DNA of 64,000 nt from a virus, in IMG/VR virus record IMGVR_UViG_3300018469_000001, positions 1 to 64,000 of that record; one strand, given 5' to 3'. Numbering within the stretch: the first letter of the stretch is position 1; the number at the start of each line of letters is the position of its first letter. Under the pieces are notes generated by a model, which saw only the letters and a program-made list of their open reading frames with translations, made no database searches and was not told the DNA's origin. The position numbers were made by a program, and so were the translations under genes. Shown here piece after piece: positions 28,431 to 45,314 of the stretch.

Positions 28431-28664
28431 TTAGTCCTGTGAGGTGTCCGCGATCAACCCGTTGGCAGCCAACCCCCGCCGCATATCCCGCCACGCCTCC
28501 ATCGCGTCGCGGTACGGCTTACGCCACGCACCCTTGCGTGGCCGCCCCACATCATCGCGCCCCCGCTCGGCCACCGACCGCCCCAAACTCTCCTGCTTGT
28601 CGATGTACCGCCGGACCATATCGACGGACAACCCGACCAGCCGGGCCGCGTCCTCCATCGACAT
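28431..28664 (-). CDS. excisionase/MerR-like HTH DNA-binding protein
   Basis: MSMEDAARLVGLSVDMVRRYIDKQ is a typical N-terminal HTH. An alternative start lies at 28715. The rest of the 593-aa antisense track ORF was rejected. Confidence 0.6.
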   Translation of the reverse strand: MSMEDAARLVGLSVDMVRRYIDKQESLGRSVAERGRDDVGRPRKGAWRKPYRDAMEAWRDMRRGLAANGLIADTSQD

Positions 28665-28752
28665 CGTCGGGCGGTCCCGATCACCAGCACCGTCCACACG
28701 CCACCCCTGATCCATTCGGGAGTACCTAGCAAACCTCGGAAGCGACACGATC

Positions 28753-30279
28753 ATGCCAGTCAGCCGGAAACCCGACCGCCAAGACGCGGCCGCATCCTGC
28801 AAACCTGGCAAACCTTGCACGGATCGTGTCACACTGGCGGGCATGCTCACAGCCGGACCGGACCACCGGACCACCACCGCGGACCACCGGACCATCCCGG
28901 ACCGGACCGCCCCGGCGCGACCCCATGCACCGGACCGGTCCGGTCCGCCCCCACCGGTCCGCCCCACCGGACCGCCCCACCGGACCGCCCCACCGGACCG
29001 CGTTGAGGAACGGACCGGACCGCGCCGTCGCCCCGGACCGGTCCGCACACCCGGACCGGTCCGCCCCCTGCCCGCCGGCGGCGGACTGGCCCTGTTCGTG
29101 CTCATCGGCACCGGCGCCGCCATCTGCGTGACCTCCTTCCTGTTCTCCTTCGAGAACGTCAAGCACCTCGCCATCAGCATCGGCATCCACAAAGACATCG
29201 CCCCCTGGATCTCCCCCACCGTCGACCTGTCCGTCGTCGGGTTCATGGTCGCCGTCCAGTGGCTCGCCCTGGCCGGCGTCACCTCCGCCCAGCTCCTACC
29301 CGCCCGCCGCGCCCTGGTCTTCGCCGGCGCCGTGATGCTGCTGCTCAACAGCGCACCGTCGGCCATGAACGCCGTCGCCGACCAGGACGTCAAAGCCGCA
29401 GGCCGCGCCCTGGTCGAGGCCGCCGTGCCGTGCCTGCTCATCATCTGGACCCACGTTGGCCCGAAGGTCATCCGGCTGTTCATCGAGGTCCGCGAGCAGC
29501 ACCGCGCCGCCGTACACGCCGTCCAGGCCGCCGCTGAGCAGGCCGCCCACGCGGAACAGCTCGCCGCCGAGCTCGCCGACCGGGCCGCCGCCGACTGGGC
29601 CGACCGGGCCGCCGCGGCGGAACGCCAGGCCGCCGCGGACCGCGAAGACGCGCAGCGCCGCGAGCTGCTCGCCGCCGCCGCCCGCCGCGAGGAAGCCGAC
29701 CGGGCGGACCGGACCGCCCGCGAGCAGGCGGACCGGTCCGCCCGCATCGAGTTGGCCCGGGCCGAAGCCGCACGCGCCGAAGCGGACCGGACCGCCGCAG
29801 CCGCCGAGGCGGACCGGGCCCGCGCCGAGGCGGACCGGGCTGCCGCGGACCGGGCCGCCGCAGAGGCGGACCGGCTCGCCGCCGAAGCACTGCGGACCGA
29901 AGCCGCGGCCGCGGCCCGGCCCGCCACCCGCCGCACCGGAACGCGGACCGGACCGCCGCACCGGAACGCGGACCGGCCCGGTCCGGTCCGGCCGCCGGCG
30001 GACAACGTCGCGCCGATCGCCGACGGAGCCACCGGCGCCCGCGAAGCCCTCGACAAGATCCGCCGCGAGTATCCGCGGTTCTCGTCGTGGGCCGAGCTGC
30101 GCACCGCGATGGAGGGCAGGGCGCCGTCGCTCAACGACGTCGCCCGCACCACCGGCATGGGCAAGGCACGCATCAGCCGGGCGCTCCAGCACGCCGAAGA
30201 CCTGGGCGTCACCTACCGCGACCCCGGCGACGACGAAACCAACCCCGACAACACCCCGGCGGTAACTGTCAGCAACTAG
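28753..30279 (+). CDS. DUF2637-like membrane protein with ADR-repeat coiled coil and C-terminal HTH
   Basis: TM core LALFVLIGTGAAICVTSFLFSFENVKHLA..APWISPTVDLSVVGFMVAV is typical of DUF2637 in actinomycete conjugative elements. Start uncertain (28753 or 28843). The first ~100 codons coincide with the repeat array. Confidence 0.65.
   Translation: MPVSRKPDRQDAAASCKPGKPCTDRVTLAGMLTAGPDHRTTTADHRTIPDRTAPARPHAPDRSGPPPPVRPTGPPHRTAPPDRVEERTGPRRRPGPVRTPGPVRPLPAGGGLALFVLIGTGAAICVTSFLFSFENVKHLAISIGIHKDIAPWISPTVDLSVVGFMVAVQWLALAGVTSAQLLPARRALVFAGAVMLLLNSAPSAMNAVADQDVKAAGRALVEAAVPCLLIIWTHVGPKVIRLFIEVREQHRAAVHAVQAAAEQAAHAEQLAAELADRAAADWADRAAAAERQAAADREDAQRRELLAAAARREEADRADRTAREQADRSARIELARAEAARAEADRTAAAAEADRARAEADRAAADRAAAEADRLAAEALRTEAAAAARPATRRTGTRTGPPHRNADRPGPVRPPADNVAPIADGATGAREALDKIRREYPRFSSWAELRTAMEGRAPSLNDVARTTGMGKARISRALQHAEDLGVTYRDPGDDETNPDNTPAVTVSN
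28855..29062. repeat. dense GG(A/T)CC / CGG(A/T)CCG repeat array (candidate clt / translocase recognition sites)
   Basis: 20 GGACC/GGTCC pentamers in 208 bp, in both orientations, including CCGGACCGGTCCGG palindromes. A 13-bp unit gccccaccggacc occurs x3 (plus one inverted-core copy) at 28947-29000. Confidence 0.7.
29704..29991. repeat. second GCGGACCGG repeat cluster (also encodes the ADR protein repeat)
   Basis: About 10 copies of GCGGACCG(G/A) plus GGTCCGGTCCGG at 29980-29991. They coincide with the EADRA..ADR coiled-coil coding region. Confidence 0.5.
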
Positions 30280-30432
30280 TCGCATGTGGTCGTCGCATGC
30301 AGTCGCCCCACCAGGGGCCACCCGGGCGGCCCAGAACAGCAGAAACAGCCCCCCGCCCGGGGGACGACGACGATCACGACCACGACCACAACATGCACAC
30401 CCCGTCACCACCCGGATAGGAAGGCCCGGCAG

Positions 30433-31767
30433 ATGACGCTCAACACCACGCCGGCCACAGCACCACCGCCCGCACCCGCCCCACCAGCAGACAAGCCGGC
30501 CGCCGAGAAGAAGCCCAGCCGCAACCCGGTGGTCCACGTACGGCCGCTGGCCGCCGCAGCCGGCAACGCCGCCACCATCGGCGGCGCCACCGCCGTACAC
30601 GCCGGCGGACCGTGGGCGCTCGCCGCGATCGCAGCCGTCGCCGCCGTCGGCGCAGGCGCGGCGGCCCGCACCCGCGTGCGGTCCAACCGGGCCGCCTCCG
30701 GCTCAGCGTTCCGGACCACCCGGACCACCACCAGCGGCGGCCGCCGCACCGGCATGCCCCACCTCGGGCTCGGCCGCAGCACGTCGGGCCGGGCCGCATC
30801 AGCCGGCATCCCGGCCGGCCGCCGCGGCGGCACCGCGGCGACTGCCGGCCGACGGACCGGCGGCGCCCGGACCGGTCTCGGCCGCGGCGGATCCGGCCTG
30901 TCCGGTCTGCGTGGCCGCGCGCCCGGGCTCGGCGGCAAATCCGGCAGCGGCAAGCTCACCCCGGGCAAGGTCGCCCGCGCCCGCCGGCTGCTCGCCGACC
31001 GGAAAGCACGCGACGCCGCCCGGCGGGCCCGGCACAAGCTGCGCGGCGAAACCGGCCAGCGGCGCCAGGCCGCAGCCGACCAGGCCCGCGCCCGCCGCGA
31101 CGCCCAGCGGGAACACCGCCGCACCAACCCCGGCTGGTGGCGACGCTGGTGGCGGGCCCGGACCGGCCGCACCACCAAACCCGACGACCCGGCCACCACC
31201 ACGCCCGGCAACAAGACGGGCCGGGAACCGGCCGTCGGCGACACCGCCCGACGCGGCACCACCGACCCGGGCCGCCGCACACCGCGGCGCCCCGCCCAGC
31301 CACCCGCAGGCCACCGGCCCGCAGGTTCCCGCCCCGCCACACCCACCGGCCCGGCCATCCCGGCCGCCGCCGCATCAGGAGGACCCGTGTCCGCAGGACC
31401 GTCGGTGATGCGGGCGCTGCTCGCCCTCGCCGAAGAGATGAAAGCCGTTGCCATCAAGCACGAACGACCCGAAGGCGTCATGCAGCTCATCCAGGAATAC
31501 GAAATCCTGCCCGAGGTGCTCGACGTGCTCACCGAAGCGTGGACGGCTTGGCACACCCGCGCCACCGACCCGCACGACGGTGACCCGCTCAACCCGGCCG
31601 TGATGGATCTGCTCGCCGAAATCGCCAAAACCCAGCGGGTCGCCGCGCACGCCGCAGCCGAAGTCGCCCCGCTGGCCCGCCGGCTGGAGGCCGCCCGCAT
31701 CGAGGCGCTACGCGACCGCCGCAACCGGATGTGGGACCTGCGCGCAAACGACGGGTACGCGGCATGA
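30433..31767 (+). CDS. Spd-like hypothetical protein (Arg/Gly-rich centre, helical C-terminus)
   Basis: ATG 30433 with RBS aggaagg. One TM-like segment (PWALAAIAAVAAVGAGAAA). Lies immediately upstream of, and coupled to, the translocase. Confidence 0.6.
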   Translation: MTLNTTPATAPPPAPAPPADKPAAEKKPSRNPVVHVRPLAAAAGNAATIGGATAVHAGGPWALAAIAAVAAVGAGAAARTRVRSNRAASGSAFRTTRTTTSGGRRTGMPHLGLGRSTSGRAASAGIPAGRRGGTAATAGRRTGGARTGLGRGGSGLSGLRGRAPGLGGKSGSGKLTPGKVARARRLLADRKARDAARRARHKLRGETGQRRQAAADQARARRDAQREHRRTNPGWWRRWWRARTGRTTKPDDPATTTPGNKTGREPAVGDTARRGTTDPGRRTPRRPAQPPAGHRPAGSRPATPTGPAIPAAAASGGPVSAGPSVMRALLALAEEMKAVAIKHERPEGVMQLIQEYEILPEVLDVLTEAWTAWHTRATDPHDGDPLNPAVMDLLAEIAKTQRVAAHAAAEVAPLARRLEAARIEALRDRRNRMWDLRANDGYAA

Positions 31768-34079
31768 GCGGGCGGCGCCGGCCCCGGGTGGACCTGTCGT
31801 TCGGCCCCGGACATGGGCCGGTCTCCGGGGTACTCAACGCGGCCGGCGCTGCCCTGGGCGCCACCATGCTGCTAGACCTCACCGGCGGGTCAGGGGTGTA
31901 CGGGTTCGCCGCGGCGTTCCTGCTCGCCTGCGCAGGCGCGGGCGTGGCCCTCTGGTACGACCAGCCCGACCGGGTCGTGGCCTACCGGGCCGGCTGCTGG
32001 CTGGCCGCCGGCGTCTGGTCGGCGTGGACCCTGTCCGGATTCCAGGGCATCCCGCTGCCGGCCACCGCCATGCGGTTGGGCGGCTGGTTCTGGTCGCCGG
32101 GCACCCCGTGGGCGGCACGCCCGGCCTACGGCCTGGCCGCCGGCGCCGCCGTCGCCGCCGCGGTCGGCTGGGCCATCGAGCGGGCCGAAAAACGCGCCGC
32201 CGCCGAGGCCGAACGACTGGCCAAACAGACCGAAGCCCAGCGGCTCGCCGCCGAAGAAGCTGCCCTGGCCGCCCGCACCCCCGCCAACGAGCAGGAAGCC
32301 ATCGCCTTCACGGTGGGCCCGGTGCTGCGCCGCATCACCCGCAAGGCGATCCAGATCCTCAACGTCGAGCTGTGGGAGCCCAACTACGGGCACACCCTGG
32401 ACTGCGAGCTGCCCGACGACGGCACCACACTCGGCGACATCAAGCCGTACGAAGAGGCGATCGCGTCCGCGCTGGACCTGGGCGAGGGTTGCGGGGTAGA
32501 GATCGTCCGGCCGGAAGGGCTCGGCCGCCGCGCCGTCCACATCAAGATCACGACGGTGTCGGCGCTCGGCCAGGACATTCCGCTGCCCGCCGACTACAGC
32601 CCGGAGACCATCGAAAACCCGGTCGCGTTGGGGGTCGAAACCGACCGCAAGGTCGCCGAGGTGCCGTTGCGATTCGAGTCCGCCGTCCTGGTCGGGCAGA
32701 CCGACAGCGGCAAGTCCAACCAGCTCAACGTCCTGGTCGCCGGCCTGGCCCGGTGCACCGACGTGCTGCTGGCCGGCATCGACCTGTCCGGCCAGGGCCG
32801 ATTCCTGCGCCCCTGGCAGCGTCCCTACTACGAGGGACGCGCCCCCGCCCCCGTGTTTGCCCTGACCGCGGTCAACGACGTCCAGGCCGCCCTGCTGGTC
32901 CAGGCGCTCATCCAGATCGTCGACGGCCGCACCGCCGACTACGCCCCGCTGATGCACGCCGAGAAAGAAGACAAGATCGTCCCCCGGCCGACGTTGCCGC
33001 AAATCGTGCTGATCATCGATGAGTTCGGCAAGCTGTCCGAGCGGGTCAAAGAGATGGTCATCACCTTGACCGACACCGGCCGCGGCGCCGCCGTCCGCGT
33101 CGTGTCCTGCGCGCTGGAGGCCACCGCCGGCTACATCCCCCGAAAGATCATCACGCAGTCGCGGGTCCGTATCGGCATGCGCGTCCAGGACGAAACCCAG
33201 CTCCAATATTTGTTCGACACCACCTGGCGCCGCGGCCGATTCGACCCGGCGTCGATGCCCTGGAAGGGCAGCGGCCTCTACACCGAGGGCACCCGATTCC
33301 CCGACCGCTTCAAGGGCTACCGGGTCAACCCCGAGCAGGTCGACCAGATCGCTGTCGCGGTCGGCCCCCTGCGCCCCCCGCTCGACGAGCCGTCACTGCG
33401 CCGCGGCGACGACGTCACCCTCACCGTCAAGGGCGACGACGGGCTGCGCACCGAACGCGACTTCGTCGGCGTGCTTACCGCCAACGAAGCCATGACCTTC
33501 CCGCTGATCTTCCCCGACGGCGCCGGCCCCTCAGCCGCCGCCGCCACCAGCACCGGAGAGGACCCCGCGATGTCCCAACAGCAGCAGCCTGCCAGCACCG
33601 GCCCGGCCGCCGACCTCGGCGGCGCCGTACGCGACCTGAACAGCTCGCTCGAGCGCGCCCGCAAGGCCGCCGACGCAGCCGAGAAGGCCGTCGCCGGCGG
33701 CGACGGCGACCAGGGCGACGACCAGCAGCCCGGCCCCGCCGACGACCCCGAGCTGCCAAGCCTCAACGCCCTGTGGGCGTCCCCGGCCGAAGAACCAGTG
33801 CGCCCCAAGGACCAGGCCCCGGCGGCCGCGCCGCGCCGTCCGGCCGTACCGCCGCGCCGCCGCGTCCAGCAGCTCATCGCCGCGGCCGCCGACACCGGTA
33901 TCGGGCCCGGCGACATCCACGCCGCGCTCAAGGCCGAGGGCTACCCGACCTCGCTGACCACGGTCAACAACTGGCTGCGGGAGTGGGCCGCGCAGGGCAT
34001 CGTCGTCCAGCCCGCGGGGGAGCGCACCCCGTGGTTTCCCGGCCCGCAGATGGGCGAGCACGGGCAGGCAGCGGCATGA
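31764..34079 (+). CDS. traB: TraB/TraSA-type FtsK/SpoIIIE-family dsDNA translocase
   Basis: N-terminal hydrophobic helices, Walker A VGQTDSGKSN, Walker B IVLIIDEFGK, and a C-terminal wHTH-like tail (IHAALKAEGYPTSLTTVNNWLREWAAQGIV). ATGA overlap with the upstream stop. Confidence 0.85.
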   Translation: MSGRRRPRVDLSFGPGHGPVSGVLNAAGAALGATMLLDLTGGSGVYGFAAAFLLACAGAGVALWYDQPDRVVAYRAGCWLAAGVWSAWTLSGFQGIPLPATAMRLGGWFWSPGTPWAARPAYGLAAGAAVAAAVGWAIERAEKRAAAEAERLAKQTEAQRLAAEEAALAARTPANEQEAIAFTVGPVLRRITRKAIQILNVELWEPNYGHTLDCELPDDGTTLGDIKPYEEAIASALDLGEGCGVEIVRPEGLGRRAVHIKITTVSALGQDIPLPADYSPETIENPVALGVETDRKVAEVPLRFESAVLVGQTDSGKSNQLNVLVAGLARCTDVLLAGIDLSGQGRFLRPWQRPYYEGRAPAPVFALTAVNDVQAALLVQALIQIVDGRTADYAPLMHAEKEDKIVPRPTLPQIVLIIDEFGKLSERVKEMVITLTDTGRGAAVRVVSCALEATAGYIPRKIITQSRVRIGMRVQDETQLQYLFDTTWRRGRFDPASMPWKGSGLYTEGTRFPDRFKGYRVNPEQVDQIAVAVGPLRPPLDEPSLRRGDDVTLTVKGDDGLRTERDFVGVLTANEAMTFPLIFPDGAGPSAAAATSTGEDPAMSQQQQPASTGPAADLGGAVRDLNSSLERARKAADAAEKAVAGGDGDQGDDQQPGPADDPELPSLNALWASPAEEPVRPKDQAPAAAPRRPAVPPRRRVQQLIAAAADTGIGPGDIHAALKAEGYPTSLTTVNNWLREWAAQGIVVQPAGERTPWFPGPQMGEHGQAAA

Positions 34080-35038
34080 CCGGCCGCATCATCGGCATGA
34101 GCGGGCCCATCATCGGCACCCGGATACGCCGGCCCGGCGACCCGCCGCCGCAGACGGTCGACTGGCTGCCTCACCCCGACCCCGACCCCGCCGACGTCAC
34201 GCCGGCTCGCGCCACCGGCAAACCACGCACCAAAGGCCGGCCTATGCCGGAGATGCCCGCCGGCGGCTACCTGCCGTACCGGCTGTTCGGGAAGCTCCCC
34301 GCCGAGGCCGCCTGGTGGCGGCGCCTGACCGCCTGGGCGACCGGCAGCGCGCACCACCTGCTCTACCTGGGCATCACCTGCCGCAACGGGTTCGTGCGTT
34401 GGGTGGAGCATTCCGACATCCAGGACTGGGCCGGCGACGTGGCCCGGGCCGAACGCGACGACTCGATCCGGTGGCGCACCCTCTACGACGCCGTCGAAGA
34501 CGAGCGCGGCCGCATCGTCCTGGTCCTCGACGACCGGCAGCCCGACGGCGCCCGCCCCGCCCGCCCCGACGAGCTGCTCGACCCGCAGCCTCACCCGTGG
34601 CGTCTCAACGGCGTCGACGTGCTCGCCCACCGCATCCACCCGGCCGGCCTGCCCGGCCGCCGCATGGGCACCGTCATCGAAGGGGCCAAGACCGGCGAGC
34701 GCCGCATGGTCCAGGCCGAGGCCCCGGTCCACAACCACGAGCACAACGAAGGCAACGCCGGCGCCGTACGCCGGCGGTACCGCATCCTGCCCACCCACGT
34801 AGCGCTGTGGCGCCGCCAGGCCGCCCACCTGGCCCTGCTGTGGCTCACCCTGGCCGGGCTGCTCGGCTGGGCATCCTACGACGGCCGCGGACTGTCGGGC
34901 ATCCTCGCCGCGGTCTCCTCCGCCATCCCGGTCGCCGCCGTGCTGATCCTGCTCGCCCAGCTCGGCCGGCAAACCGTCCGCGGCCGCGTCCACCTGAAAC
35001 TGCAACGGGCACGCCGCAGGGGAGGCGCCCGCCGATGA
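34076..35038 (+). CDS. hypothetical protein with C-terminal TM helices (Spd-like)
   Basis: ATGA overlap with the traB stop. C-terminal LALLWLTLAGLLGW and AIPVAAVLILLAQL. Confidence 0.55.
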   Translation: MTGRIIGMSGPIIGTRIRRPGDPPPQTVDWLPHPDPDPADVTPARATGKPRTKGRPMPEMPAGGYLPYRLFGKLPAEAAWWRRLTAWATGSAHHLLYLGITCRNGFVRWVEHSDIQDWAGDVARAERDDSIRWRTLYDAVEDERGRIVLVLDDRQPDGARPARPDELLDPQPHPWRLNGVDVLAHRIHPAGLPGRRMGTVIEGAKTGERRMVQAEAPVHNHEHNEGNAGAVRRRYRILPTHVALWRRQAAHLALLWLTLAGLLGWASYDGRGLSGILAAVSSAIPVAAVLILLAQLGRQTVRGRVHLKLQRARRRGGARR

Positions 35039-35424
35039 TCCCCGGATCAGGTGACGTGCTGCTCATCGACCGCGAGGCGTCCGTCCAGTTCCTCGAGCCG
35101 ATCCTGTTGCGGGTCATCCGCGTCCACAACTGGACCACCTACACCGGGTGGGTGTGGCTGGACGGATACCAGCTCCTGCCCAACGGTGACGCCATCGAGC
35201 GCCGGTCGGTGTTCGTCCAGCTCGCCGGGCTTAAGCAGATACCGACCGCCATCCCGCCGGCGGCCCGCCGCAACGCCGCCCGGTCGGCGAAACGGAAAGC
35301 GCCGGACCGCGACAAGTGCCATCCCACGTTGGTCCACCTGCCGGATCCGACCCGGCCGCCGGACCCGGAGCCGCGATCCCGGCCGGAGCCGCATGCTCGC
35401 GCCGGTGGGCTGCAACGCTCGTGA
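35035..35424 (+). CDS. hypothetical protein
   Basis: ATGA overlap with the upstream stop. 129 aa. Confidence 0.55.
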   Translation: MIPGSGDVLLIDREASVQFLEPILLRVIRVHNWTTYTGWVWLDGYQLLPNGDAIERRSVFVQLAGLKQIPTAIPPAARRNAARSAKRKAPDRDKCHPTLVHLPDPTRPPDPEPRSRPEPHARAGGLQRS

Positions 35425-35540
35425 GAGCGCTTGCCGCCGTGGCGCGTCGAGGCGCCCGGCTGATCCCGTGGCCGGTCAACGACCCGGTGATGGTCGGCCT
35501 CGCCCTGGCCGTCCTGCTGACCCTGGCCGTCCTCGGATAA
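35421..35540 (+). CDS. very small membrane protein (39 aa)
   Basis: GTGA overlap with the upstream stop. VMVGLALAVLLTLAVLG. Low confidence because of its size. Confidence 0.35.
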   Translation: MRALAAVARRGARLIPWPVNDPVMVGLALAVLLTLAVLG

Positions 35541-35554
35541 CCCACCCCCTCCCG

Positions 35555-35583
35555 TTGTGGTCTTGTTGGTGGTCGCGTAACGT
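35555..35583 (+). promoter_or_regulatory. conserved promoter-like motif, copy C (TTGTGG-N17-TAACGT), rightward
   Basis: TTGTGGtcttgttggtggtcgcgTAACGT lies 49 nt upstream of ATG 35632, followed by the palindrome ggtgggtggcc/ggccacccacc in the leader. Confidence 0.6.
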
Positions 35584-35631: not shown

Positions 35632-35826
35632 ATGGACCAGCTCGACCTGTTCGGCGAGGCCACCCCCATCACCGCCCCGTCGCCCGCCCCGGTCGACCCC
35701 CAGCTCGCCCTGTTCCGCCCCGACTTCCTGGCCATGCGCGCCCCCCGGCCGCGCGGTGCCGCCGCCCGCAAGGCCGCCGCGGCCGCCGCCCTGGACCCCG
35801 CGCTGCACAACGACGCGCTGATCTGA
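35632..35826 (+). CDS. hypothetical small protein
   Basis: ATG 35632 (MDQLDLFGE) with RBS gcagggag. Confidence 0.5.
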   Translation: MDQLDLFGEATPITAPSPAPVDPQLALFRPDFLAMRAPRPRGAAARKAAAAAALDPALHNDALI

Positions 35827-35835
35827 GGGACGACA

Positions 35836-36291
35836 ATGACCGACGACCGTTACGACGAGCTGGGCCCGCTGGCCTTCGCCCCCGACGACACCATCGAGAT
35901 CGAGCAGCCCCCGGTCGACGTGCCCCGCGACACCTGCGGACTGCGCCCCGGATCGCGCCGCGTGGCCAGCAGCAGCGGCGACCGCGACTACCGCTACATC
36001 GGCGTCGTACGCCTCGACGGCCGGCCGATCGCCGAGTGCGGCCACGAGCACCGCAACCGCGACTGGAACGGCGCCACCGACTGCGCCCGCGCCGTCCTCG
36101 CCGGAGCAGCCAACCCCAACGTCGCCGCCGCGGCCGCCGGAACGATCTGCGACCGCTGGATGCCGCTGACCCATGCCACCGGCCACACCTACAGCAAGAC
36201 CACCATCGACGCGGCCAAGACCGCCGCCCACACCGACGCGGCCACCTACCGCGCCGCCGTCGACACCGTCCGCACCGCCATCGCCCGCTGA
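35836..36291 (+). CDS. hypothetical protein
   Basis: RBS gaggga. 151 aa. Confidence 0.55.
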   Translation: MTDDRYDELGPLAFAPDDTIEIEQPPVDVPRDTCGLRPGSRRVASSSGDRDYRYIGVVRLDGRPIAECGHEHRNRDWNGATDCARAVLAGAANPNVAAAAAGTICDRWMPLTHATGHTYSKTTIDAAKTAAHTDAATYRAAVDTVRTAIAR

Positions 36292-36305
36292 AAGGGACCA
36301 CGACG

Positions 36306-37175: not shown

Positions 37176-37193
37176 AAGGACACACCCGACCGC

Positions 37194-37466
37194 ATGCCCA
37201 CCACCATCAGCTACACCGACACGTACCGGCTGGACGCCCCGTGCGCGGTCGACGACCTCGACCTCGACCCCGACCTGCGTAAGCGGCTACTCGAGGCGGT
37301 CAACGGCGACGACACCGCCGTACGCACCCGGGTCAGCGACCGGGTCGAGCGGGAGATCACCGCCCGGCTGCGACGGTACGGCGTCACCGACACCGGCGAG
37401 TGGCTCGGCGACTGGTCCGCCGCCGCCCTGATCGACAGAATCCTGGAGGAGGAGATCACCCGATGA
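37194..37466 (+). CDS. hypothetical protein
   Basis: 90-aa acidic ORF. Confidence 0.5.
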   Translation: MPTTISYTDTYRLDAPCAVDDLDLDPDLRKRLLEAVNGDDTAVRTRVSDRVEREITARLRRYGVTDTGEWLGDWSAAALIDRILEEEITR

Positions 37467-37642
37467 CCGTCAAGCTCGCCGAGCTGGTCGACCGGCTCAC
37501 CGAGGCCAGCACCAAACCCGTCTCGCCGGCACTCGTGCGCGTCTGGCTGGGCGACCCACCCGACACCGAGACCTACACCGACGTCGACGCCGCCGACCTG
37601 GTCGCCGCCTGGAAGGAAGGCGACGTCCACCCCGACAAGTAG
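37463..37642 (+). CDS. hypothetical small protein
   Basis: ATGA overlap with the upstream stop. 59 aa. Confidence 0.45.
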   Translation: MTVKLAELVDRLTEASTKPVSPALVRVWLGDPPDTETYTDVDAADLVAAWKEGDVHPDK

Positions 37643-37693: not shown

Positions 37694-38044
37694 CTACTCC
37701 ACCCGCCGATCCCCCTGGTCTAGTCCACCCTCGTCGTGGTCGGCGAGCCACGACCCGATCACCGACTCCGGGAAACCCCTTGCCCGCATCGCTGCGGCCT
37801 GCGCGGCGGCGGCGACCTGCTCCCGGTGCTTACGGTCTTCCGCCCGCCGGGCCCGCCGCTCGGCCCACCATCGCTCTTCCGCCCGGCGTGCCCGCGGACT
37901 GAACAGCAGCAGGTTCGCCGCCCACGCCACCGCGACCACAACCACCCCGGCCGCCTCCGCCGGATACAGCACGGCCAGCGCACCGAGCGCCACCACCACC
38001 AGCAACGCCACCGAGGCGGTCAGCACCGTGTCCAGCCCCCACAC
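37694..38044 (-). CDS. membrane protein
   Basis: Two N-terminal TM helices followed by an Arg/Glu-rich tail. Confidence 0.5.
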   Translation of the reverse strand: MWGLDTVLTASVALLVVVALGALAVLYPAEAAGVVVVAVAWAANLLLFSPRARRAEERWWAERRARRAEDRKHREQVAAAAQAAAMRARGFPESVIGSWLADHDEGGLDQGDRRVE

Positions 38045-38048
38045 AGCG

Positions 38049-38762
38049 TCAACACCGACCCGCGTGATCGGGGTGCCGGTACCGGCCGTACGACCGCTGC
38101 CGCTGGACCAGCTTCCCGTCCGCGACGAGCTGGTCCAGCACCTCGATCAGCGTGCTGTTGCGTACCGGCTGCCCCAGCTCGGCGAGCCGACCGGACAGCG
38201 CATGCTTGGAGATGCCGTCCGTGCCGGACAGCAACGCCTGCTCGACGATGATCAGCTCGGCGACGTCCCGGTCCTCGCCGGCCGGGCGTTGTGGCGGTCC
38301 GCCAAGCTCGAAGGGGGTCTCGGCCGCCGCCGACGCCGCCGAGAAGTCCGCCCGCCCCGCCGGCGTCTGGCCGGCCCGCGGCTCGCCGAAGCAGTCCGCC
38401 GCGGCTGTTCCCAGCCCGTACCGGCCGTGCCCGTCGTAACCCCACGACGCCCGCACCGGGACCTCGTCGACCCGGTCGGCGAGGTCCGCCCCGTACTCGC
38501 CGTGGGAGCGTTCCCGGTGGGCGGCCTGCGCCGCCCGATGTTCGATCATTTCGCGTCGACCCCGCTGTCTGCCATGCAGGTAGGCCAGCCTCGCCAACCC
38601 CGCCGTGGCTACCCCAGCGCCGAGCAGGAAGAACGTGGCCCCACCCGTGTCCCCGCCGGCTGTGGCCAACAACGCAACGGCCACCGTCAGGAAAAGCACC
38701 GTCACCGCGGACAGCTCAGCTACCAGTACCGACCAGTCGGCCGGATGAATCCGCCGTCGCAT
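38049..38762 (-). CDS. membrane-anchored protein with C-terminal winged-helix-like domain
   Basis: Two N-terminal TM helices. C-terminal GISKHALSGRLAELGQPVRNSTLIEVLDQLVADGKLV. Confidence 0.55.
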   Translation of the reverse strand: MRRRIHPADWSVLVAELSAVTVLFLTVAVALLATAGGDTGGATFFLLGAGVATAGLARLAYLHGRQRGRREMIEHRAAQAAHRERSHGEYGADLADRVDEVPVRASWGYDGHGRYGLGTAAADCFGEPRAGQTPAGRADFSAASAAAETPFELGGPPQRPAGEDRDVAELIIVEQALLSGTDGISKHALSGRLAELGQPVRNSTLIEVLDQLVADGKLVQRQRSYGRYRHPDHAGRC

Positions 38763-38793
38763 GTTCGTCTCCTCAGTCCAGAAAAAGGGGTGA

Positions 38794-39042
38794 TCACTGC
38801 GCGATCAGGTCGGGTGCCCACCAGGCCAGGACCGCCCACCCGGCCAGCCCGCCGAGCAGCAGCACCGCCGCGACGAGCAGCACCCGCTTGACCGCGGCCA
38901 CCACCCGCCACCACCACCACACGAACCGGTCGACGGCGATGAGCACGGCGTCGCGTACCGCCTGAGACAGCAGGGTGGCCAGCATCCCGCCGACCGCACC
39001 GACCGCGATCAGAGCCCAACTGCCGGCGTCGATGGTGCCCAT
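38794..39042 (-). CDS. small membrane protein
   Basis: Three hydrophobic segments and a WWWW motif. Confidence 0.5.
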   Translation of the reverse strand: MGTIDAGSWALIAVGAVGGMLATLLSQAVRDAVLIAVDRFVWWWWRVVAAVKRVLLVAAVLLLGGLAGWAVLAWWAPDLIAQ

Positions 39043-39175: not shown

Positions 39176-39181
39176 GACCGG

Positions 39182-39664: not shown

Positions 39665-40189
39665 TCAGCCAATCAGGCGGGCGAATCTGTGCCCACCGCC
39701 GGGCCACGGATGCCGGACCGTGACCCGCCGCCCCGACCCGGGCGCGTCCGCGACCCACACCCGCAGCCGGCCCGACGGCCCGGTCACCTTCACCACCACA
39801 CCGACGTGGTAAGCGCTTCCCCGACCGCCCCAGTAGACGAGATCACCCGGGCGGACCAGCCGGCGGGGGATAGGCCGCCCCAGGCGGGACTGTGCGGCCG
39901 CCGTGCGGGGCAGCTTGCGCCCACCCACCGCGTAGGACCGCAACGCCAAACCCGAGCAGTCGTAGGCCTCAGGCCCGGACGCACCCCACCGGTACGGCTT
40001 GCCGCGCTGCGACCGGGCGTGCGCGGCGACCCGGTCCCGTCGCACCACCAGGGCAGCGGCCACGGTGGTGCGTGACGCGAAACGCGTCACGCGTGACGCC
40101 CTGCCGGCCGCCGCCGCCCGATACGCGAGCGCCTCGACCAGCTCGCCCGGCGCCAACACAGCCGACGTGGGGGAGTGGTGCGCCACCAC
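39665..40189 (-). CDS. NlpC/P60-family peptidoglycan endopeptidase
   Basis: GKPYRWGASGPEAYDCSGL (catalytic Cys) ..GDLVYW..SAYHVGVV (His). Start uncertain (GTG 40189). Confidence 0.8.
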   Translation of the reverse strand: MVAHHSPTSAVLAPGELVEALAYRAAAAGRASRVTRFASRTTVAAALVVRRDRVAAHARSQRGKPYRWGASGPEAYDCSGLALRSYAVGGRKLPRTAAAQSRLGRPIPRRLVRPGDLVYWGGRGSAYHVGVVVKVTGPSGRLRVWVADAPGSGRRVTVRHPWPGGGHRFARLIG

Positions 40190-40648: not shown

Positions 40649-40664
40649 CCTCAGGAGGACCACC

Positions 40665-41315
40665 ATGTACCACCAGGACCCCCGCAACGTCGGCGCCGGC
40701 CAGCCCGGCCCCAGCTACGGCTACGACCGGCCGGCCGACTACCCGCAGCCCCCGCAGCCACCGCGCAAGAAGTCCCGCGGCTGGCTGATCGCCGCCGTCG
40801 TCGTCGGCGCGATCCTGGTGCTGTGCGCCGCCGGCGCCGCAATCGTCGTCGGCACCGCCGCCGAGCAGGCCGCCAACGTCATCCCCGACGGCACCGCCAC
40901 CCCCCGCGAGGCCACCGTCGGCATCGGCCAGCCGGCCCGCGACGGCAAGTTCGAGTTCACCGTCACCAAGGCCAGATGCGGCAAGACCAGTTACGGCAAC
41001 AAGTACGCCGGCGCGCAGGCCGCCGGCCTGTACTGCGAGATCCGGCTCACCGTCGCCAACATCGGCGACCAGGCGCAGCTCTTCGCCCAGTCCGAGCAGA
41101 AGGCGTACGACACCGCCGGCCGGCAGTACTCCACCGACCTGACCGCCGCCATCTACGCCAACCAGGGCAGCGACGTGTGGCTCAAAGAGGTCAACCCCGG
41201 CAACAAGATCAGCGGCCTGTTGATCTTCGACGTGGCCAAGGGCACCCTGCTCGACCGCGTCGAACTGCACGACTCGATCTTCTCCGGGGGAGTGGTCGTC
41301 AAGCTCAGGGGGTGA
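40665..41315 (+). CDS. DUF4352-like membrane-anchored protein
   Basis: ATG 40665 with RBS caggagga. Pro-rich N-terminus, one TM helix, then GQPARDGKFEFTVTKARCG..LYCEIRLTVANIG..ISGLLIFDV. Confidence 0.65.
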   Translation: MYHQDPRNVGAGQPGPSYGYDRPADYPQPPQPPRKKSRGWLIAAVVVGAILVLCAAGAAIVVGTAAEQAANVIPDGTATPREATVGIGQPARDGKFEFTVTKARCGKTSYGNKYAGAQAAGLYCEIRLTVANIGDQAQLFAQSEQKAYDTAGRQYSTDLTAAIYANQGSDVWLKEVNPGNKISGLLIFDVAKGTLLDRVELHDSIFSGGVVVKLRG

Positions 41316-41435
41316 GCCTGACCGACCACCACCCGCGCGCCCGGCCTCGTTCGCGTACGGGGCCGGGCGCGCGGCTGTCTGGCATCATCGGCCGACATGC
41401 CCATCTTCCGCGCAAGCCCACCTCGAGCCGCGCGG

Positions 41436-42881
41436 TCAGCGAACGGCGGGCATGACCAGCGTCATCGCATCAGCCGGCCGGTACGCCGCCACCGCGCCGC
41501 CAGCTCCGACCGGCTCCGGGACCGCCGGCCCGGCGCCGAGCGCCACCTCAACCGTGGCCCGCGTGCCCCAGCCGGTACGCCAGCACGTCACCACACCCCA
41601 CCAGCGTGCCGCCCGCAACACCGTCGCCGCGAACAGGCCAGCCACCGGCGCCAACAACCAGACCCCCCACTGATACCAGGCCGACTGATCCGACCGGCGG
41701 ATCGTCATGTACCGCAGGCACATCCCGTAGGAGATGGCCACCGGCACCGCCAGCAGCCACACGACCAGCTCCCACGTCGGCGACACCGCCAGCCCGGCCA
41801 CCACCACCCCGCCGAACAACGCCGTCGACACCCCGGTACCAACCCACCGCTGCGTATGCAGCCACCACGCCGGCCGGCCCATCGACAGGAACCGGGCCCG
41901 CCACAGCGACCGGATCGTCGACCCGCGCATCCACCGCAGGTACATCCGCCAGAAATGGCCGAACCGCTGCGGCATCAGCGAGAACGCCAACGCCGACGGC
42001 TGCTGAACCGTCCGCCCCCGCGTCATCGCATACAAGGTGAGCAGCGAGTCATCGGAGAACGGCACCCGCCGCCCCCCGAACGTCTCGGTCAGGTAGCCGA
42101 CGACGTTGTCGCGCATCACCTCAGCCCGGTACAAGGCGATCGGCCCCGAGTTCACCCACACCGACCCGCCCAGCACCGACAGGGCACCCCGGTCGACGAG
42201 CTGCCCGGTCACAAACCACAGATCGGTGATCCGCGTCAGCAGGTTGCCGCGCACGTTGGCCGCCATCACCACCCCGGCCACCGACTGCACCCGATGATCA
42301 GACATCGGCTTGAGTAGCTCCGCCAACGCCGCGGCGTCCGAAATGGTGTCCGAGTCGACCGTCCACAGGAAGTCGGCGTCGCGCACCCACGCCAACGCCT
42401 GCACCTGGGCGTGGCGCTTGCCCGCGTTGGGCTGCCGCACCCACACCGGCCGCACGCCGGCCGCCGCCGCCGCCCGGTAGAACCAGGCCCGCACCCCGTC
42501 GTAGGCGGCCACATCGGGCGACCCGTCATCAACCACCACGATCGACTGCGGCCGCCGGTCCTGCCCGATCATCGACTCCAGACAGGCCCGCAACGCCGCC
42601 GGGTCCTCGTTGTACGCCGGCCCCAGCGCCGCCACGTTCGCCTCATCGAGCCGCGCCTGCCACCGCCGACCCACCTCGACCGGCCGATTCAGGTAGGAGA
42701 AGCCGAGCTGCGCGACCAGCACACCCCACAGCAGCACATACAGGGCCACAAACCGGTGCCCCCGCGCCTCGGTGAGCAACCCGTGCGCGGCCAGCCCGTG
42801 ATGAGCCGACCACACCGCCACCGCCACCAGCACCGCCAACGCAGCCACCAACACCCGGCCACGCACCAGCCGGGCGCTCAC
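41436..42881 (-). CDS. processive family-2 glycosyltransferase (hyaluronan/chitin/cellulose-synthase-like)
   Basis: IVVVDDGS, TVDSDT, a GPIALYR.. block and YLRWMRGS (xxRW motif), flanked by TM helices. GTG 42881 overlaps the stop of the upstream small gene. Longer start rejected. Confidence 0.8.
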   Translation of the reverse strand: MSARLVRGRVLVAALAVLVAVAVWSAHHGLAAHGLLTEARGHRFVALYVLLWGVLVAQLGFSYLNRPVEVGRRWQARLDEANVAALGPAYNEDPAALRACLESMIGQDRRPQSIVVVDDGSPDVAAYDGVRAWFYRAAAAAGVRPVWVRQPNAGKRHAQVQALAWVRDADFLWTVDSDTISDAAALAELLKPMSDHRVQSVAGVVMAANVRGNLLTRITDLWFVTGQLVDRGALSVLGGSVWVNSGPIALYRAEVMRDNVVGYLTETFGGRRVPFSDDSLLTLYAMTRGRTVQQPSALAFSLMPQRFGHFWRMYLRWMRGSTIRSLWRARFLSMGRPAWWLHTQRWVGTGVSTALFGGVVVAGLAVSPTWELVVWLLAVPVAISYGMCLRYMTIRRSDQSAWYQWGVWLLAPVAGLFAATVLRAARWWGVVTCWRTGWGTRATVEVALGAGPAVPEPVGAGGAVAAYRPADAMTLVMPAVR

Positions 42882-43126
42882 CGACCCAGCAGACGGGCCA
42901 GCCGACCACGCCGGCTGTGCGCCGGGGGAGCAGCCAACACCGCACCAGCCGCCGACACCGACCGGCCCTGACGCCACGTCATCCGCAGCAGCAACGTCCC
43001 ACCGACGATCATCACCGCGGCGATCACCGCCAGCAACAGCGGCCACGACACCGCATACGACCCGCCGGCAACACCAATCGTCAACGCCGCAGCGCGACCA
43101 GTACGAGGCAAAGAACCGAACGACAT
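42878..43126 (-). CDS. small membrane protein co-transcribed with GT2 synthase
   Basis: ATG 43126 with RBS ggagttgg. 82 aa with one or two TM segments (WPLLLAVIAAVMIVGGTLLL). Confidence 0.55.
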   Translation of the reverse strand: MSFGSLPRTGRAAALTIGVAGGSYAVSWPLLLAVIAAVMIVGGTLLLRMTWRQGRSVSAAGAVLAAPPAHSRRGRLARLLGR

Positions 43127-43388
43127 GACAGACCAACTCCACGGGTAGGTGTATTTCGACGGCCGCCGATCAATGCCGGCCGCCAGCCGGCATTCTGCCG
43201 TACCCGCCGCCCCGCCACACCCCGCCCGAATCGGCCATCCGGACACGACCAACCACCCGACCAGCCTGCGGAAGCCGTCGCGTGACCGCCACGGGCCGGC
43301 GCCCACCCGTGGAAGAAGACGCCGGCCCCCTCGGCTGAACCCACCCCGAGCACACCACCCGACAGCGGCGACCACCAGCCCGAATTGT

Positions 43389-43697
43389 TCACATATCCAG
43401 CCGAACACCCAGGCGTGACCAAAGCCCCAGCCCCGCCGGCGGATCTCCACCCGACAGCGCAGGCCCCGACCCGTACACCTCCGACCAGACGCACCGGCCG
43501 ATCCGCCACGCATGGGCCGGCAGAACACACCGGCACACAAACGACGACGGGTCACACACCGGCACCGCACCGCCCAGCCCGTCGACCTGGTCTCCGCCGT
43601 GGACCTGCTCGTGCCGACAGCACCAGCCGTCATCGCACGGCTGGAAGTCCACGCCGGCGCCCGGCAGATTCGGGCAACAGTCCGGGAACGGATACAC
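43389..43697 (-). CDS. Cys-rich small protein
   Basis: GTG 43697 preceded by the strong RBS aggaagg. 9 Cys, including the doublets PDCCP and DDGWCC. Confidence 0.5.
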   Translation of the reverse strand: MYPFPDCCPNLPGAGVDFQPCDDGWCCRHEQVHGGDQVDGLGGAVPVCDPSSFVCRCVLPAHAWRIGRCVWSEVYGSGPALSGGDPPAGLGLWSRLGVRLDM

Positions 43698-43974
43698 GAG
43701 GCAACCTTCCTAGGATGGGAGCCCGTCGTCGGCCGACGACGCAGGACGGCCACCGCCCCGCAGCGTACACAGCGTCACGACCAGCGACTACGCAGCGTGG
43801 CGCCCCACGCTGGTCGGTGTTTCATCGTGCTTGACCTGGGAAAACTCGCACTATCCGAACAGGCCGGCCGCGATGCCCCGGACGATCTCTCTACCCTGAT
43901 AACTTGACTTGTCCCGCCTGAGCACTGGCTCAGATCAAGAGCAGGAAGACCCAGCAACGACGGAGGCGACGCGG

Positions 43975-44205
43975 ATGAGCGGCGGCGAGCAGAAGGTCCG
44001 GCGCGCTGTGGCGTTGGCCGTACGGGACTGCCTGATCGGCGATCCCACGCTGACCGAGGAACAGATCATGGTGGCGGTGATCGCCGAATTGGAAATCCGC
44101 GCGTACCACCCGGGCGCGGCGACGCCGACGTCGGTGGCTGTGGCCGAAAACCTCGCGTCCGTCCTGGACGGACGGCTGAGGGCGGGCGCCGAGGCCGACG
44201 CATGA
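43975..44205 (+). CDS. hypothetical small protein upstream of and coupled to integrase
   Basis: ATG 43975 with RBS ggagg. ATGA overlap with the int start. Confidence 0.45.
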   Translation: MSGGEQKVRRAVALAVRDCLIGDPTLTEEQIMVAVIAELEIRAYHPGAATPTSVAVAENLASVLDGRLRAGAEADA

Positions 44206-45314
44206 GGGCGGGCACCGATCTGGTCGTGCCGACCGGCACCGGACAGATCACGCCGCAACAGGCCCGCGACAGCTACCTGCCGGCCTCGGCCCGCGAGCTG
44301 ATCGTCAAGGGTGTGCCGGCGAACACGCTGCGCTCGTACTCTGCGGCGTGGCGGCCGTTCCGGCTGTGGTGCCAGAACCGGCAGCGCGGTTTCGCGCCGG
44401 TCTCCGAAAACACCATGATCAGCTACTTGGATGAGTGGCGCGGCCGGCCGATGCACCACAACCGCTGCAAGTGCCGTCACCACCGGCCGGCACCGTCCAC
44501 CATGTGGCTGTGGTACGCCGCGGTGCGCTTCTACCACCGGGTAGGGTCGCCGCCGCTGCCGTGGGAGTGCGGCGAGAACCTGACCCGCGCCATGATCGGC
44601 TACTCGCTGGAGATGGTCGAGAGCGGCTGGACGCCGGCCCGGGCGCCGCGGGCATTCCCGACCGACGTCACCAGGATGGTCGACGCGCTGGACCTGTCCG
44701 AGCCGAAGTACCTGCGCGACCGGGCGATCATCCTGACGAACTTCTACACCGCCGGCCGGTCGGCTGATCTGGGCACGTACCGGCTCGCCGACGTTGAGCA
44801 CTTCCCCCGCGGGATCCGGCTCGTGCTGCGCATGTCGAAGACCAACCGCCGGCCCGGTAAGAAGATCGAGTCGCGGGAGGTGTTCGAGAACAGCCTGCGG
44901 CCGCAGTACTGCGGGGTCGAGGCGATCCACGCCTGGACCGATTGGCTGCGTTGCCAGGGTGTCACGTCGGGTGCCCTGTTCCGGCCGTTCTCCAAGCCGC
45001 ACTACAAGGCCGGCGAGCGCAAGGCCGGGGTGCTGCTGCGCGGGCACCGCGACGGCGAGGCGTACCGGATGGACGGCACCAGCCTGTCGGAGGTCATCCA
45101 GGATGCTGCGATCCGGGCGGAGCTGCCCAACGCCGAGCAGTACACCTGCCATTCGCTGCGCCGCGGCCGGGCCACCCAGCAGCGTGAGCTGGGCGGCGAC
45201 CCGCTGGACATCGCCCGGGCGTACGGCTGGGCACCCAATGGTGCGATCAACGTGTACCTGGAGGAGGCCGAGCGGGAGGCGCCGACCGCGGTTGGCGCGC
45301 AGGGGCTGCTGTGA
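44202..45314 (+). CDS. int: tyrosine recombinase / integrase
   Basis: SAM-like N-domain (TLRSYSAAWRPFRLWC), catalytic-domain blocks AGRSADL, HSLRRGRAT and GWAPNGAINVYLEE (R..HxxR..Y). Confidence 0.85.
   Translation: MRAGTDLVVPTGTGQITPQQARDSYLPASARELIVKGVPANTLRSYSAAWRPFRLWCQNRQRGFAPVSENTMISYLDEWRGRPMHHNRCKCRHHRPAPSTMWLWYAAVRFYHRVGSPPLPWECGENLTRAMIGYSLEMVESGWTPARAPRAFPTDVTRMVDALDLSEPKYLRDRAIILTNFYTAGRSADLGTYRLADVEHFPRGIRLVLRMSKTNRRPGKKIESREVFENSLRPQYCGVEAIHAWTDWLRCQGVTSGALFRPFSKPHYKAGERKAGVLLRGHRDGEAYRMDGTSLSEVIQDAAIRAELPNAEQYTCHSLRRGRATQQRELGGDPLDIARAYGWAPNGAINVYLEEAEREAPTAVGAQGLL

Follow-up and report, generated by a model that had tools for sequence, protein, structure and literature searches.

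The stretch of viral DNA analyzed here (IMG/VR record IMGVR_UViG_3300018469_000001, positions 1 to 64,000; hereafter the window) represents 64 kb of a temperate phage of the siphovirus type whose genome measures approximately 100.9 kb. Sequence comparisons indicate that the region from 28.4 to 35.5 kb is a conserved operon, centered on a predicted DNA translocase (g43) and a partner protein (g42), which is common to this phage lineage, actinomycete plasmids, and the Streptomyces plasmid-phage pZL12. A preliminary description of the window had read positions 28,431 to 45,314 as a full Streptomyces-type TraB/FtsK transfer module, possibly an actinomycete integrative and conjugative element (AICE) embedded in a phage. 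Our data indicate that the module is confined to the operon, while the remainder of the block, from 35.6 to 45.3 kb, reads as an ordinary lysogeny and accessory region.

The central gene, g43 (31764-34079, plus strand), encodes a protein of 771 amino acids with a Walker A motif at residue 311 (GQTDSGKS, within VGQTDSGKSN) and a Walker B motif at residue 414 (IVLIIDE, followed by FGK). An AlphaFold2 model of g43 built from 42 homologues (mean pLDDT 83) contains N-terminal helices at residues 19-91 and 118-170, equivalent to three to four membrane helices, an alpha/beta motor at residues 287-548, and a C-terminal winged helix at residues 697-759 (three helices and a strand; block pLDDT approximately 87-92). 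A Fur-type winged helix-turn-helix (HTH) profile matches the C-terminus at E 0.013. Motifs and model thus bear out the membrane helices, Walker motifs, and winged-helix tail that the preliminary description had noted, and we annotate g43 as a membrane-anchored FtsK-fold double-stranded DNA (dsDNA) translocase. The match of g43 to Pfam FtsK_SpoIIIE is weak (18.1 bits against a cut-off of 24). Within PHROGs, g43 matches phrog_31069, 'FtsK/SpoIIIE-like', at E 1.5e-80, compared to 8e-5 for a terminase family, and its family is categorized as 'moron, auxiliary metabolic gene and host takeover'. Foldseek placed the FtsK motor at the top of the structural matches (2iut, 6t8o; E 1.5e-19, target-normalised TM-score 0.62-0.69), followed by the TcpA coupling protein, EccC, and HerA. 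We considered whether g43 is a packaging ATPase and ruled this out: the genome encodes a separate large terminase subunit (TerL), the FtsK-like PHROG match is far stronger, and no terminase appears among the top 50 Foldseek matches.

Relatives of g43 were found on both phages and plasmids. By tblastn, the phage relatives with 28-31% identity are Thermobifida phage P1312, Streptomyces phages Hiyaa, Spocter, Galactica, and Keanu, and 'phage ZL12', with Gilgamesh and Wofford being more distant. Plasmid relatives come from 48 actinomycete plasmid records, mostly at approximately 26-36% identity, and the best plasmid match scores 206 bits versus 164 bits for the best phage match. Eight viral contigs in IMG/VR also carry family members. 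In a neighbour-joining tree (341 motor-domain columns, 200 bootstraps), g43 falls within a clade with 100% bootstrap support together with nine Micromonosporaceae-type homologues, plasmid 'second FtsK-like' genes, pZL12.71c, P1312, and Hiyaa; its identity to pZL12.71c and the plasmid genes is 30-36%. Outside this clade are Tra(KilA) of pIJ101, the canonical Tra proteins of pSQ10 and pDSM40587, and Escherichia coli FtsK, and the identity of g43 to these Tra proteins (19-21%) is the same as its identity to E. coli FtsK. Gilgamesh-type proteins also lie outside the well-supported clade (48% bootstrap). Because canonical Tra lies outside the clade at approximately 20% identity, our data argue that g43 is a transfer-type FtsK-like ATPase of plasmids and phages and not a member of the classical TraB family, contrary to the earlier label of 'Streptomyces-type TraB'. 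The phylogeny proposed as a check on that label nonetheless places g43 with plasmid transfer-type translocases and not with housekeeping FtsK or terminases.

Two of the plasmids in this comparison, pSQ10 (L016) and pDSM40587 (L005), each carry two FtsK-like translocases: a canonical Tra beside a GntR gene and a second translocase paired with the partner described below. The systems are therefore distinct, which implies, as judged from gene content, two different DNA-translocation functions on one small plasmid. When g43 was used as the tblastn query against pDSM40587 at E 1e-5, no second site was matched. A literature search found no published study of pSQ10.

The partner protein, g42 (30433-31767, plus strand), is 444 amino acids in length and contains one predicted transmembrane (TM) region, an Arg/Gly-rich tract (the protein is 14% Arg and 12% Gly), and a conserved C-terminal helical domain at approximately residues 316-440. 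The g42 and g43 reading frames share an ATGA overlap and are predicted to be translationally coupled; ATGA overlaps also join g43 to g44 and g44 to g45, and a GTGA overlap follows at 35421. A tblastn search detected the C-terminal domain of g42 directly upstream of the translocase in 12 loci. A jackhmmer search seeded with residues 301-444 of g42 (144 residues) covered the six-frame open reading frames (ORFs) of the window and 23 retrieved loci, 24 sources in all. In 21 of them, the window included, it recovered a single ORF per locus, which was always immediately upstream of the translocase. The partners recovered include pZL12.72c, P1312_064, the gp101 region of Hiyaa, and those of pSQ10, pFQ12, pDSM40587, and NBC_01102. 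Since the partner lies upstream of the translocase in every locus returned, the two genes form the universal core of the operon. This relationship of g42 was recovered only by iterative profile search: g41 and g42 showed no significant pairwise BLASTP similarity to pZL12.73c, pZL12.72c, or the pDSM40587 neighbours, and megablast of the block against phage and plasmid collections gave no match.

The operon is headed by g41 (28843-30279, plus strand), a membrane protein with four predicted TM regions, a long coiled coil rich in Ala, Arg, Asp, and Glu, and an HTH-like C-terminal tail. Its start is either a conserved ATG at 28843 or a GTG at 29098, and in relatives the upstream sequence is a conserved 'GATCGTGxCACACTG...ATG'. 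The preliminary description called g41 DUF2637-like. We found that the four TM regions occur in the right position while the family assignment is only weakly supported: g41 has no Pfam match with either start, similarity to DUF2637/SpdB is weak (hhalign probability 56%, E 1e-4), one of six family members matches PF10935 (E 5.8e-4), and jackhmmer does not link g41 to DUF2637 proteins. A word-indexed homologue search with g41 returned four matches and was swamped by the coiled coil. On plasmids pDSM40587 and NBC_01102 the operon order is DUF2637 protein, a protein of approximately 690 amino acids, and translocase; pZL12.73c-71c follow the same order, with pZL12.73c lacking a Pfam DUF2637 match. 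Position and architecture thus hint that g41 may be analogous to the plasmid DUF2637 protein, with sequence similarity being marginal.

Downstream of g43 and coupled to it by the overlaps given above are g44 (320 amino acids, C-terminal TM region), g45 (129 amino acids), and g46 (39 amino acids, one TM region), spanning 34076-35540 on the plus strand; none of the three matches a family in Pfam, PHROGs, or NCBIfam. Upstream and divergent from the operon is g40 (28431-28664, minus strand), a 77-amino-acid HTH protein and candidate regulator with weak matches to HTH_29 (E 4e-4) and MerR (E 1.6e-3). One relative is a JGI contig, L022, whose translocase is 81% identical to g43. g40 is kept at the same position in L022 and in two further relatives, L021 and L013, and its counterpart in L012 matches MerR/HTH_17; g44 is conserved in L022, L021, L013, and L008, and g45 in L022 and L021. 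Overall, g40, g44, g45, g53, g55, and the NlpC/P60 and DUF4352 proteins of the right half are conserved only among the nearer relatives. The HTH gene, the membrane/coiled-coil protein, the Arg/Gly-rich protein, and the coupled ORFs are all present where the preliminary description had placed them. Pfam gave no match for g42, g44-g48, and most flanking genes, and NCBIfam searches with ten block proteins returned nothing meaningful.

The head of the operon contains a real repeat array. Between g40 and the membrane part of g41, on the plus strand at 28851-29075, we found an array of the heptamer CCGGACC (GGTCCGG) that includes 4.7 copies of the 13-nt unit CCGGACCGCCCCA (Tandem Repeats Finder (TRF) score 101). 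There are 14 copies of CCGGACC within the 250 bp at 28851-29100, 13 of these on one strand, whereas the density in the rest of the window, which has 25 forward and 17 reverse copies outside the array, predicts approximately 0.2. We considered that the array might be a protein-level repeat in the N-terminal extension of g41 and rejected this as the principal explanation: the copies are distributed over all three frames, the units measure 5, 8, and 13 nt, and G+C content at the three codon positions (0.84/0.74/0.80) shows no asymmetry. The use of three frames and the lack of codon-position bias argue for a DNA-level element, despite the conserved in-frame ATG ahead of the array.

A heptamer-cluster scan, which superseded TRF analysis of relatives L104 and L105 that was not conclusive alone, placed heptamer arrays next to the operon in most relatives as well as in the window. 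L022 shares both the heptamer CCGGACC and an identical recognition helix in the winged helix. More distant relatives have other arrays by the operon (CGACCCG, AGACCGG, CCGACCC, CCGTACG, and, directly 3' of the pFQ12 translocase, GACGCAA) and different recognition helices. In P1312, an array of 12 CCGGTCC copies lies 3 kb downstream of the translocase gene, and the scan detected no strong heptamer array next to the pZL12 operon. This pattern is as expected of a site resembling clt or the TraB recognition sequence (TRS), although it is confounded by phylogeny. Of the claim that this is a clt-like repeat locus, then, the array itself stands as a candidate cis-acting site, with a clt/TRS-like function as one candidate role; the pattern would also suit an operator for g40 or a centromere.

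These features suggest a mechanism. We propose that g43 would form a hexameric pore-motor in the hyphal membrane, that loading on the double-stranded genome of the phage or prophage would occur at the heptamer array through the winged helix, and that g43 would pump unprocessed dsDNA across septal cross-walls or into the adjoining hypha, with g41 and g42 acting as possible membrane and envelope partners of the pump. The outcome would be a virion-independent route, by conjugation or intramycelial spreading, besides infection. That the operon has such a transfer or spreading role is, in our judgment, an evenly balanced proposition. Our wider hypothesis is more tentative, and we put it forward as one that could well prove wrong: a lineage of 85-115-kb temperate actinophages and phage-plasmids (the window element, its relatives in Micromonospora, Actinoplanes, and Salinispora, the IMG/VR contigs, and pZL12) may routinely be transmitted in two ways, through virions and through virion-independent dsDNA pumping, the latter via the partner and a translocase that reads an element-specific, clt-like heptamer array co-varying with the winged helix.

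Several observations weigh against a transfer role. No homologues of g41 or g44-g46 were detectable in the plasmid operons. Pfam, NCBIfam, and tblastn versus pIJ101 revealed no Spd, GntR/Kor, or Rep gene in the block, and the Tra/Spd similarity anticipated for the other module genes was not found, since none of the block proteins resembles SpdA, SpdB, or KilB of pIJ101 (tblastn). The position of the array, with a divergent HTH gene on one side and the operon on the other, is also that expected of an operator, and heptamers such as CGGACCG also arise as a by-product of coding Ala-Asp-Arg repeats in g41 (a 12-copy cluster at 29765). Hiyaa and other phages isolated from plaques carry family members, and a conjugative role is not obvious there. 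Finally, that the traA-traC genes of pZL12 are pZL12.71c-73c is our own inference.

The fold of g43 is closest to that of FtsK, whose native job is septal DNA clearance, and this invites an alternative in which the operon serves vertical maintenance. The pump would then read the array as a centromere or as a site like the FtsK orienting polar sequences (KOPS), and would clear or distribute copies of the element across septa into compartments and spores; by analogy with FtsK-XerCD/dif, the pump might in addition work with the tyrosine recombinase to resolve multimers. In keeping with this, no ParA, ParB, or Rep family and no recognisable partition system was found among approximately 60 proteins scanned, the element is a free circle in the assembly, and relatives occupy separate contigs of approximately 90-130 kb in isolate genomes, among them a 93-kb contig of Micromonospora sp. 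NPDC049366 and the 107-kb contig BSSY01000028.1 of Actinoplanes sp. NBRC 101535. However, pZL12 has its own ParA and ParB besides the operon, and pSQ10 carries the operon plus a ParA gene. A tyrosine recombinase is present, which favours this reading, but it is encoded 10 kb away behind a small xis-like gene, an arrangement typical of integration, and some relatives are chromosomally integrated. We consider vertical maintenance unlikely as the role of the operon.

The operon may alternatively belong to the infection cycle or to exclusion, with the pump moving replicating phage DNA between mycelial compartments in lytic growth or blocking or expelling the DNA of competitors. The presence of the family in the plaque-isolated phages Hiyaa, Spocter, Galactica, Keanu, Gilgamesh, and Wofford is consistent with this, yet the closest relatives of g43 by score are plasmid genes (206 versus 164 bits), and the phage-gene-free plasmids pSQ10 (18 kb), pFQ12 (22 kb), and pDSM40587 (29 kb) carry the same gene pair. 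This alternative would also agree with the PHROGs category of the family, with the HerA/FtsK-type ATPases of anti-phage systems found among the lower Foldseek matches, and with the neighbouring DUF4352, glycosyltransferase, and small membrane proteins, which resemble prophage exclusion genes; against exclusion, a sequence-specific winged helix with a cognate array on the element's own DNA would, going by the model, point to self-recognition. We regard an infection or exclusion function as rather improbable.

Whether the operon could be a foreign insertion depends on the integrity of the replicon. Because raw ORF lists are uninformative at 72% G+C, genes were called by codon-usage log-odds, which gave 87 genes in the window and reproduced the ORFs of the preliminary description. 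Exact-protein look-ups located the window sequence on ENA metagenome contig k141_5529450 (100,964 bp). The window crosses the ends of this contig: coordinate offsets shift by 100,858 bp at approximately 18.3 kb of the window, and a 106-bp overlap at 18239-18344 is the circularisation overlap. Therefore, the genome assembles as a circle of approximately 100,858 bp without host flanks, a map also compatible with a permuted virion genome. A Logan contig (82,395 bp; assembly of SRR6958472) contains the same sequence in a different rotation, and an identical translocase protein is recorded from a JGI source (longest contig 100,981 bp). The Logan assembly stops at approximately 5769, within a 650-bp gene-free gap (5174-5823) behind the endolysin gene, at what might be a repeat or a physical end of the genome.

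The flanks of the block are genuinely those of a tailed phage, as the preliminary description had stated. The window encodes virion and tail-like proteins (68-2123), an Amidase_2 endolysin (4106-5173), RecT (14019-15320), an N6/N4 methylase, a 5'-3' exonuclease, and the start of TerL (from 62799; phrog_38, E 7.5e-70). Just beyond it are the complete TerL (Terminase_6), a 660-amino-acid portal candidate, a 2,617-amino-acid protein, a tape measure protein of at least 1,312 amino acids, and a Sipho_Gp37 tail protein. With TerL, tape measure, Sipho_Gp37, endolysin, and RecT, the replicon is a genuine siphovirus-type tailed-phage genome. Its host is most likely a member of the Micromonosporaceae, because the nearest named relatives of the translocase belong to Actinoplanes, Micromonospora, and Salinispora and a protein 80% identical to TerL occurs in Micromonospora sp. 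NPDC049366.

Our data indicate that the block belongs to the phage backbone. Synteny with L022 extends from the methylase and exonuclease genes across the entire block and as far as the gene past the integrase, and G+C content and codon usage are uniform across the block borders. We found no att-like direct repeats bounding the block, no Pfam, NCBIfam, or PHROG match to RepSA, RepAM, or Prim-Pol in 28.4-45.3 kb, and no GntR/Kor, XRE, or Nudix gene within the block. That the block is instead a recent AICE or plasmid insertion, or an assembly chimera joining a phage and a conjugative element, is suggested by the pairing of an integrase with an FtsK-like Tra, which recalls AICEs (PMC3218068), and by the plasmid origin of the nearest scored relatives of g43, but it is largely refuted and in our view very improbable given the recurrence of the same sequence in the ENA and Logan contigs and of the identical translocase protein in a JGI source, the closing circular map, the uniform borders, the L022 synteny over both flanks, and the lack of flanking repeats and of Rep, Kor, and Nudix genes inside the block.

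The preliminary description had also tied the block to the virion genes through a shared promoter motif. We found exactly three copies of this 31-nt motif, CGTTGTGGTCTTGTTGSTGGTCGYGTWACGT, versus none in 100 shuffles: copy A at 27512-27542 (minus strand, upstream of g37), copy B at 28388-28418 (minus strand, upstream of g39), and copy C at 35553-35583 (plus strand, upstream of g47), each approximately 30-50 nt ahead of a gene start. The 21-nt core has no further exact copy in approximately 20 kb of flanking genome or in the relatives, including the 81%-identical one. All copies are therefore local (27.5, 28.4, and 35.6 kb) and lie beside genes of unknown function, so the motif does not tie the block to recognisable virion genes. 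The motif is likely a promoter or operator common to three transcription units near the translocase operon, which it would co-regulate. Scans with Rfam and for sigma-70 promoters were negative, and a tRNA scan found no tRNA genes in the window.

The region to the right of the operon contains the genes that the preliminary description had listed there, together with one that it had not. Five small soluble proteins, g47-g51 (35632-37642, plus strand), come first; of these, g49 alone has a match (phrog_18108, unknown function), and the group is partly conserved in L022 and L021. Three small membrane proteins with predicted TM regions follow, g52-g54 (37694-39042, minus strand), which are conserved in L022, with g53 also in L021 and L013. 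An NlpC/P60 peptidoglycan endopeptidase (39665-40189, minus strand; PF00877, E 2.9e-16) is a second cell-wall hydrolase besides the Amidase_2 endolysin, and homologues are found in L008, L013, L021, and L022, in each case 8-10 kb downstream of the translocase; the enzyme is the sole right-half protein that could belong functionally to a wall-crossing apparatus. A membrane-anchored DUF4352 protein (40665-41315, plus strand; PF11611, E 7.6e-24, one TM region) is conserved in L021 and L022. The gene absent from the preliminary description encodes a polytopic family-2 glycosyltransferase (GT2) at 41436-42881 on the minus strand (Glycos_transf_2, E 5.4e-15; Glyco_tranf_2_3, E 3.7e-14; five TM regions). 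The GT2, DUF4352, and NlpC/P60 genes lie near the integrase and are candidate lysogenic-conversion or exclusion genes. A 1.1-kb stretch without a convincing gene (42882-43974; no ORF with coding statistics, no tRNA, and no Rfam match) is a possible attP region, and is followed by a 76-amino-acid xis-like gene that overlaps (ATGA) the gene for a 370-amino-acid tyrosine recombinase (together 43975-45314, plus strand; Phage_integrase, E 7.5e-7, phrog_1).

Four further observations concern genes outside the block. A 65-amino-acid DUF397 protein (Pfam; 12592-12789) belongs to a family typical of Streptomyces XRE/DUF397 pairs, and its homologue in L022 (16162-16356) lies within the block region. g33 (20717-21871) contains, at 21237-21342, 2.9 near-perfect copies of the 22-nt unit GCACGGGGGGACTGCTAGTCCA, with a partial copy upstream and a 15-nt repeat, all within the low-complexity middle of a 384-amino-acid protein. 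The N-terminal 205 residues of g33 resemble a 481-amino-acid pSQ10 protein encoded beside its GntR gene (E 1e-17), and g33 looks like a replication initiator of plasmid ancestry with an internal iteron origin in the style of lambda O. g13 (9592-10221) lies 19 kb outside the block and aligns over 174 residues, at 36% identity, with the NUDIX hydrolase of pSQ10 (E 1e-19). Since g13 lacks both the REx2EE Nudix box and a Pfam NUDIX match, it is probably a catalytically dead Nudix fold. The NUDIX class of the pSQ10 protein is also the class of Pif, the transfer-immunity factor of pSAM2. Lastly, the 2,617-amino-acid ORF comes after TerL and the portal candidate on the same genome (L009 15735-20726; approximately 5.7 kb past the 3' end of the window), and its first 1,664 residues have a weak PI3/PI4-kinase match and otherwise no Pfam match.

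Should the operon indeed carry phage DNA from one hyphal cell to another, the temperate phages of mycelial actinomycetes would possess a second means of transmission, one that requires no receptor. Phages and conjugative plasmids would then be less sharply separated, which would affect host range, the flow of genes among antibiotic producers, and the way such contigs are classified in metagenomes. Our analysis describes a translocase family, distinct from canonical TraB, that is common to plasmids and phages, identifies an obligatory partner gene for this family, and locates candidate recognition arrays (CCGGACC in the case of the window).

We compared the window element with several known systems. 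The canonical TraB of pSVH1 and Tra (KilA) of pIJ101 resemble g43 in having a membrane anchor, an FtsK-type motor, and a C-terminal winged helix, and TraB C termini recognise 8-bp clt repeats (PMC4447253). Like these systems, the window element has short direct repeats near the gene on its own DNA, and several small membrane proteins accompany the gene. The canonical pSVH1 repeat is an 8-mer, GACCCGGA, whereas the window repeat unit is the heptamer CCGGACC. The canonical proteins further differ in being only approximately 20% identical to g43 and falling in a separate group, and the block has no GntR repressor (TraR/KorA), its divergent gene instead encoding a 77-amino-acid MerR/HTH_29-like protein. 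In housekeeping FtsK, a motor is joined to a C-terminal winged helix, and this helix reads short DNA motifs with a defined orientation. FtsK/SpoIIIE, which use KOPS and SpoIIIE recognition sequences (SRS), respectively, likewise share motor and winged helix with g43 and include its best structural match (2iut, 6t8o). In contrast, g43 is encoded on a mobile element, is 20% identical to FtsK, has a different N-terminal membrane domain, and lacks a long linker; its associated motif is clustered in one array, while FtsK motifs are spread and skewed along the replicon.

AICEs are defined by an integrase, a Rep protein, and an FtsK-type Tra (PMC3218068, PMC2440964). Like pSAM2, SLP1, and pMEA300, the window element encodes a tyrosine integrase with a small upstream gene, here preceded by the 1.1-kb non-coding stretch in which attP may lie, and an FtsK/SpoIIIE-type translocase; the phage also has a Nudix-fold gene, g13, though outside the block and with a degenerate Nudix box. 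It differs from AICEs in lacking RepSA, RepAM, Prim-Pol, GntR, and XRE genes in the block, in having no att boundaries, and in its size of approximately 101 kb with a full virion module. As in phage-plasmids, a virion and packaging module is present (TerL, portal candidate, tape measure, Sipho_Gp37, tail proteins, and endolysin). Among actinophages, P1312 and Hiyaa have translocases of the same clade and the partner domain upstream (P1312_064 and the Hiyaa gp101 region), and the membrane protein gp98 of Hiyaa gives a weak DUF2637 match; these phage translocases differ in being 28-31% identical to g43, with C-terminal regions not alignable by BLAST. For actinophage FtsK-like proteins, one paper has suggested use 'during replication' (PMC11536984).

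The closest known counterpart is pZL12/phiZL12 (GQ919031), a Streptomyces plasmid-phage of approximately 90 kb with relatives such as pSLE1 and pSAM1-size plasmids of 85-94 kb. Its conjugal transfer is reported by citing papers (PMC3583192), and a phage with plasmid-type transfer has had an experimental precedent since 2010. Like the window element, pZL12 is a tailed-phage genome with a translocase of the same clade (pZL12.71c, 30% identity, 100% bootstrap). This is its sole FtsK-like gene, with a homologous partner directly upstream and a membrane protein before the partner. TerL and the tyrosine recombinase (pZL12.36c integrase/recombinase) are 34 and 26% identical, respectively, to those of the window phage. 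The two elements differ in host (Streptomyces versus a Micromonosporaceae-like host), in the ParA and ParB of pZL12, which have no recognised counterparts, nor has RepA, in the window element, and in the upstream membrane protein and downstream coupled genes of pZL12, which are not detectably homologous to g41 and g44-g46. Furthermore, the pZL12 operon has no strong heptamer array and abuts the terminase, whereas the window operon lies approximately 29 kb upstream of TerL. Terminases of the pZL12 type occur on 35 Streptomyces plasmids, most of 85-94 kb, and at least eight complete Streptomyces plasmids (86-152 kb) carry both a pZL12-type TerL and a g43-family translocase. The preliminary description had seen possible novelty in the full module together with a clt-like repeat locus; the union of virion genes and this translocase operon is already an established kind, and our sequence comparisons indicate that the window element is a divergent new member of it from a different host family.

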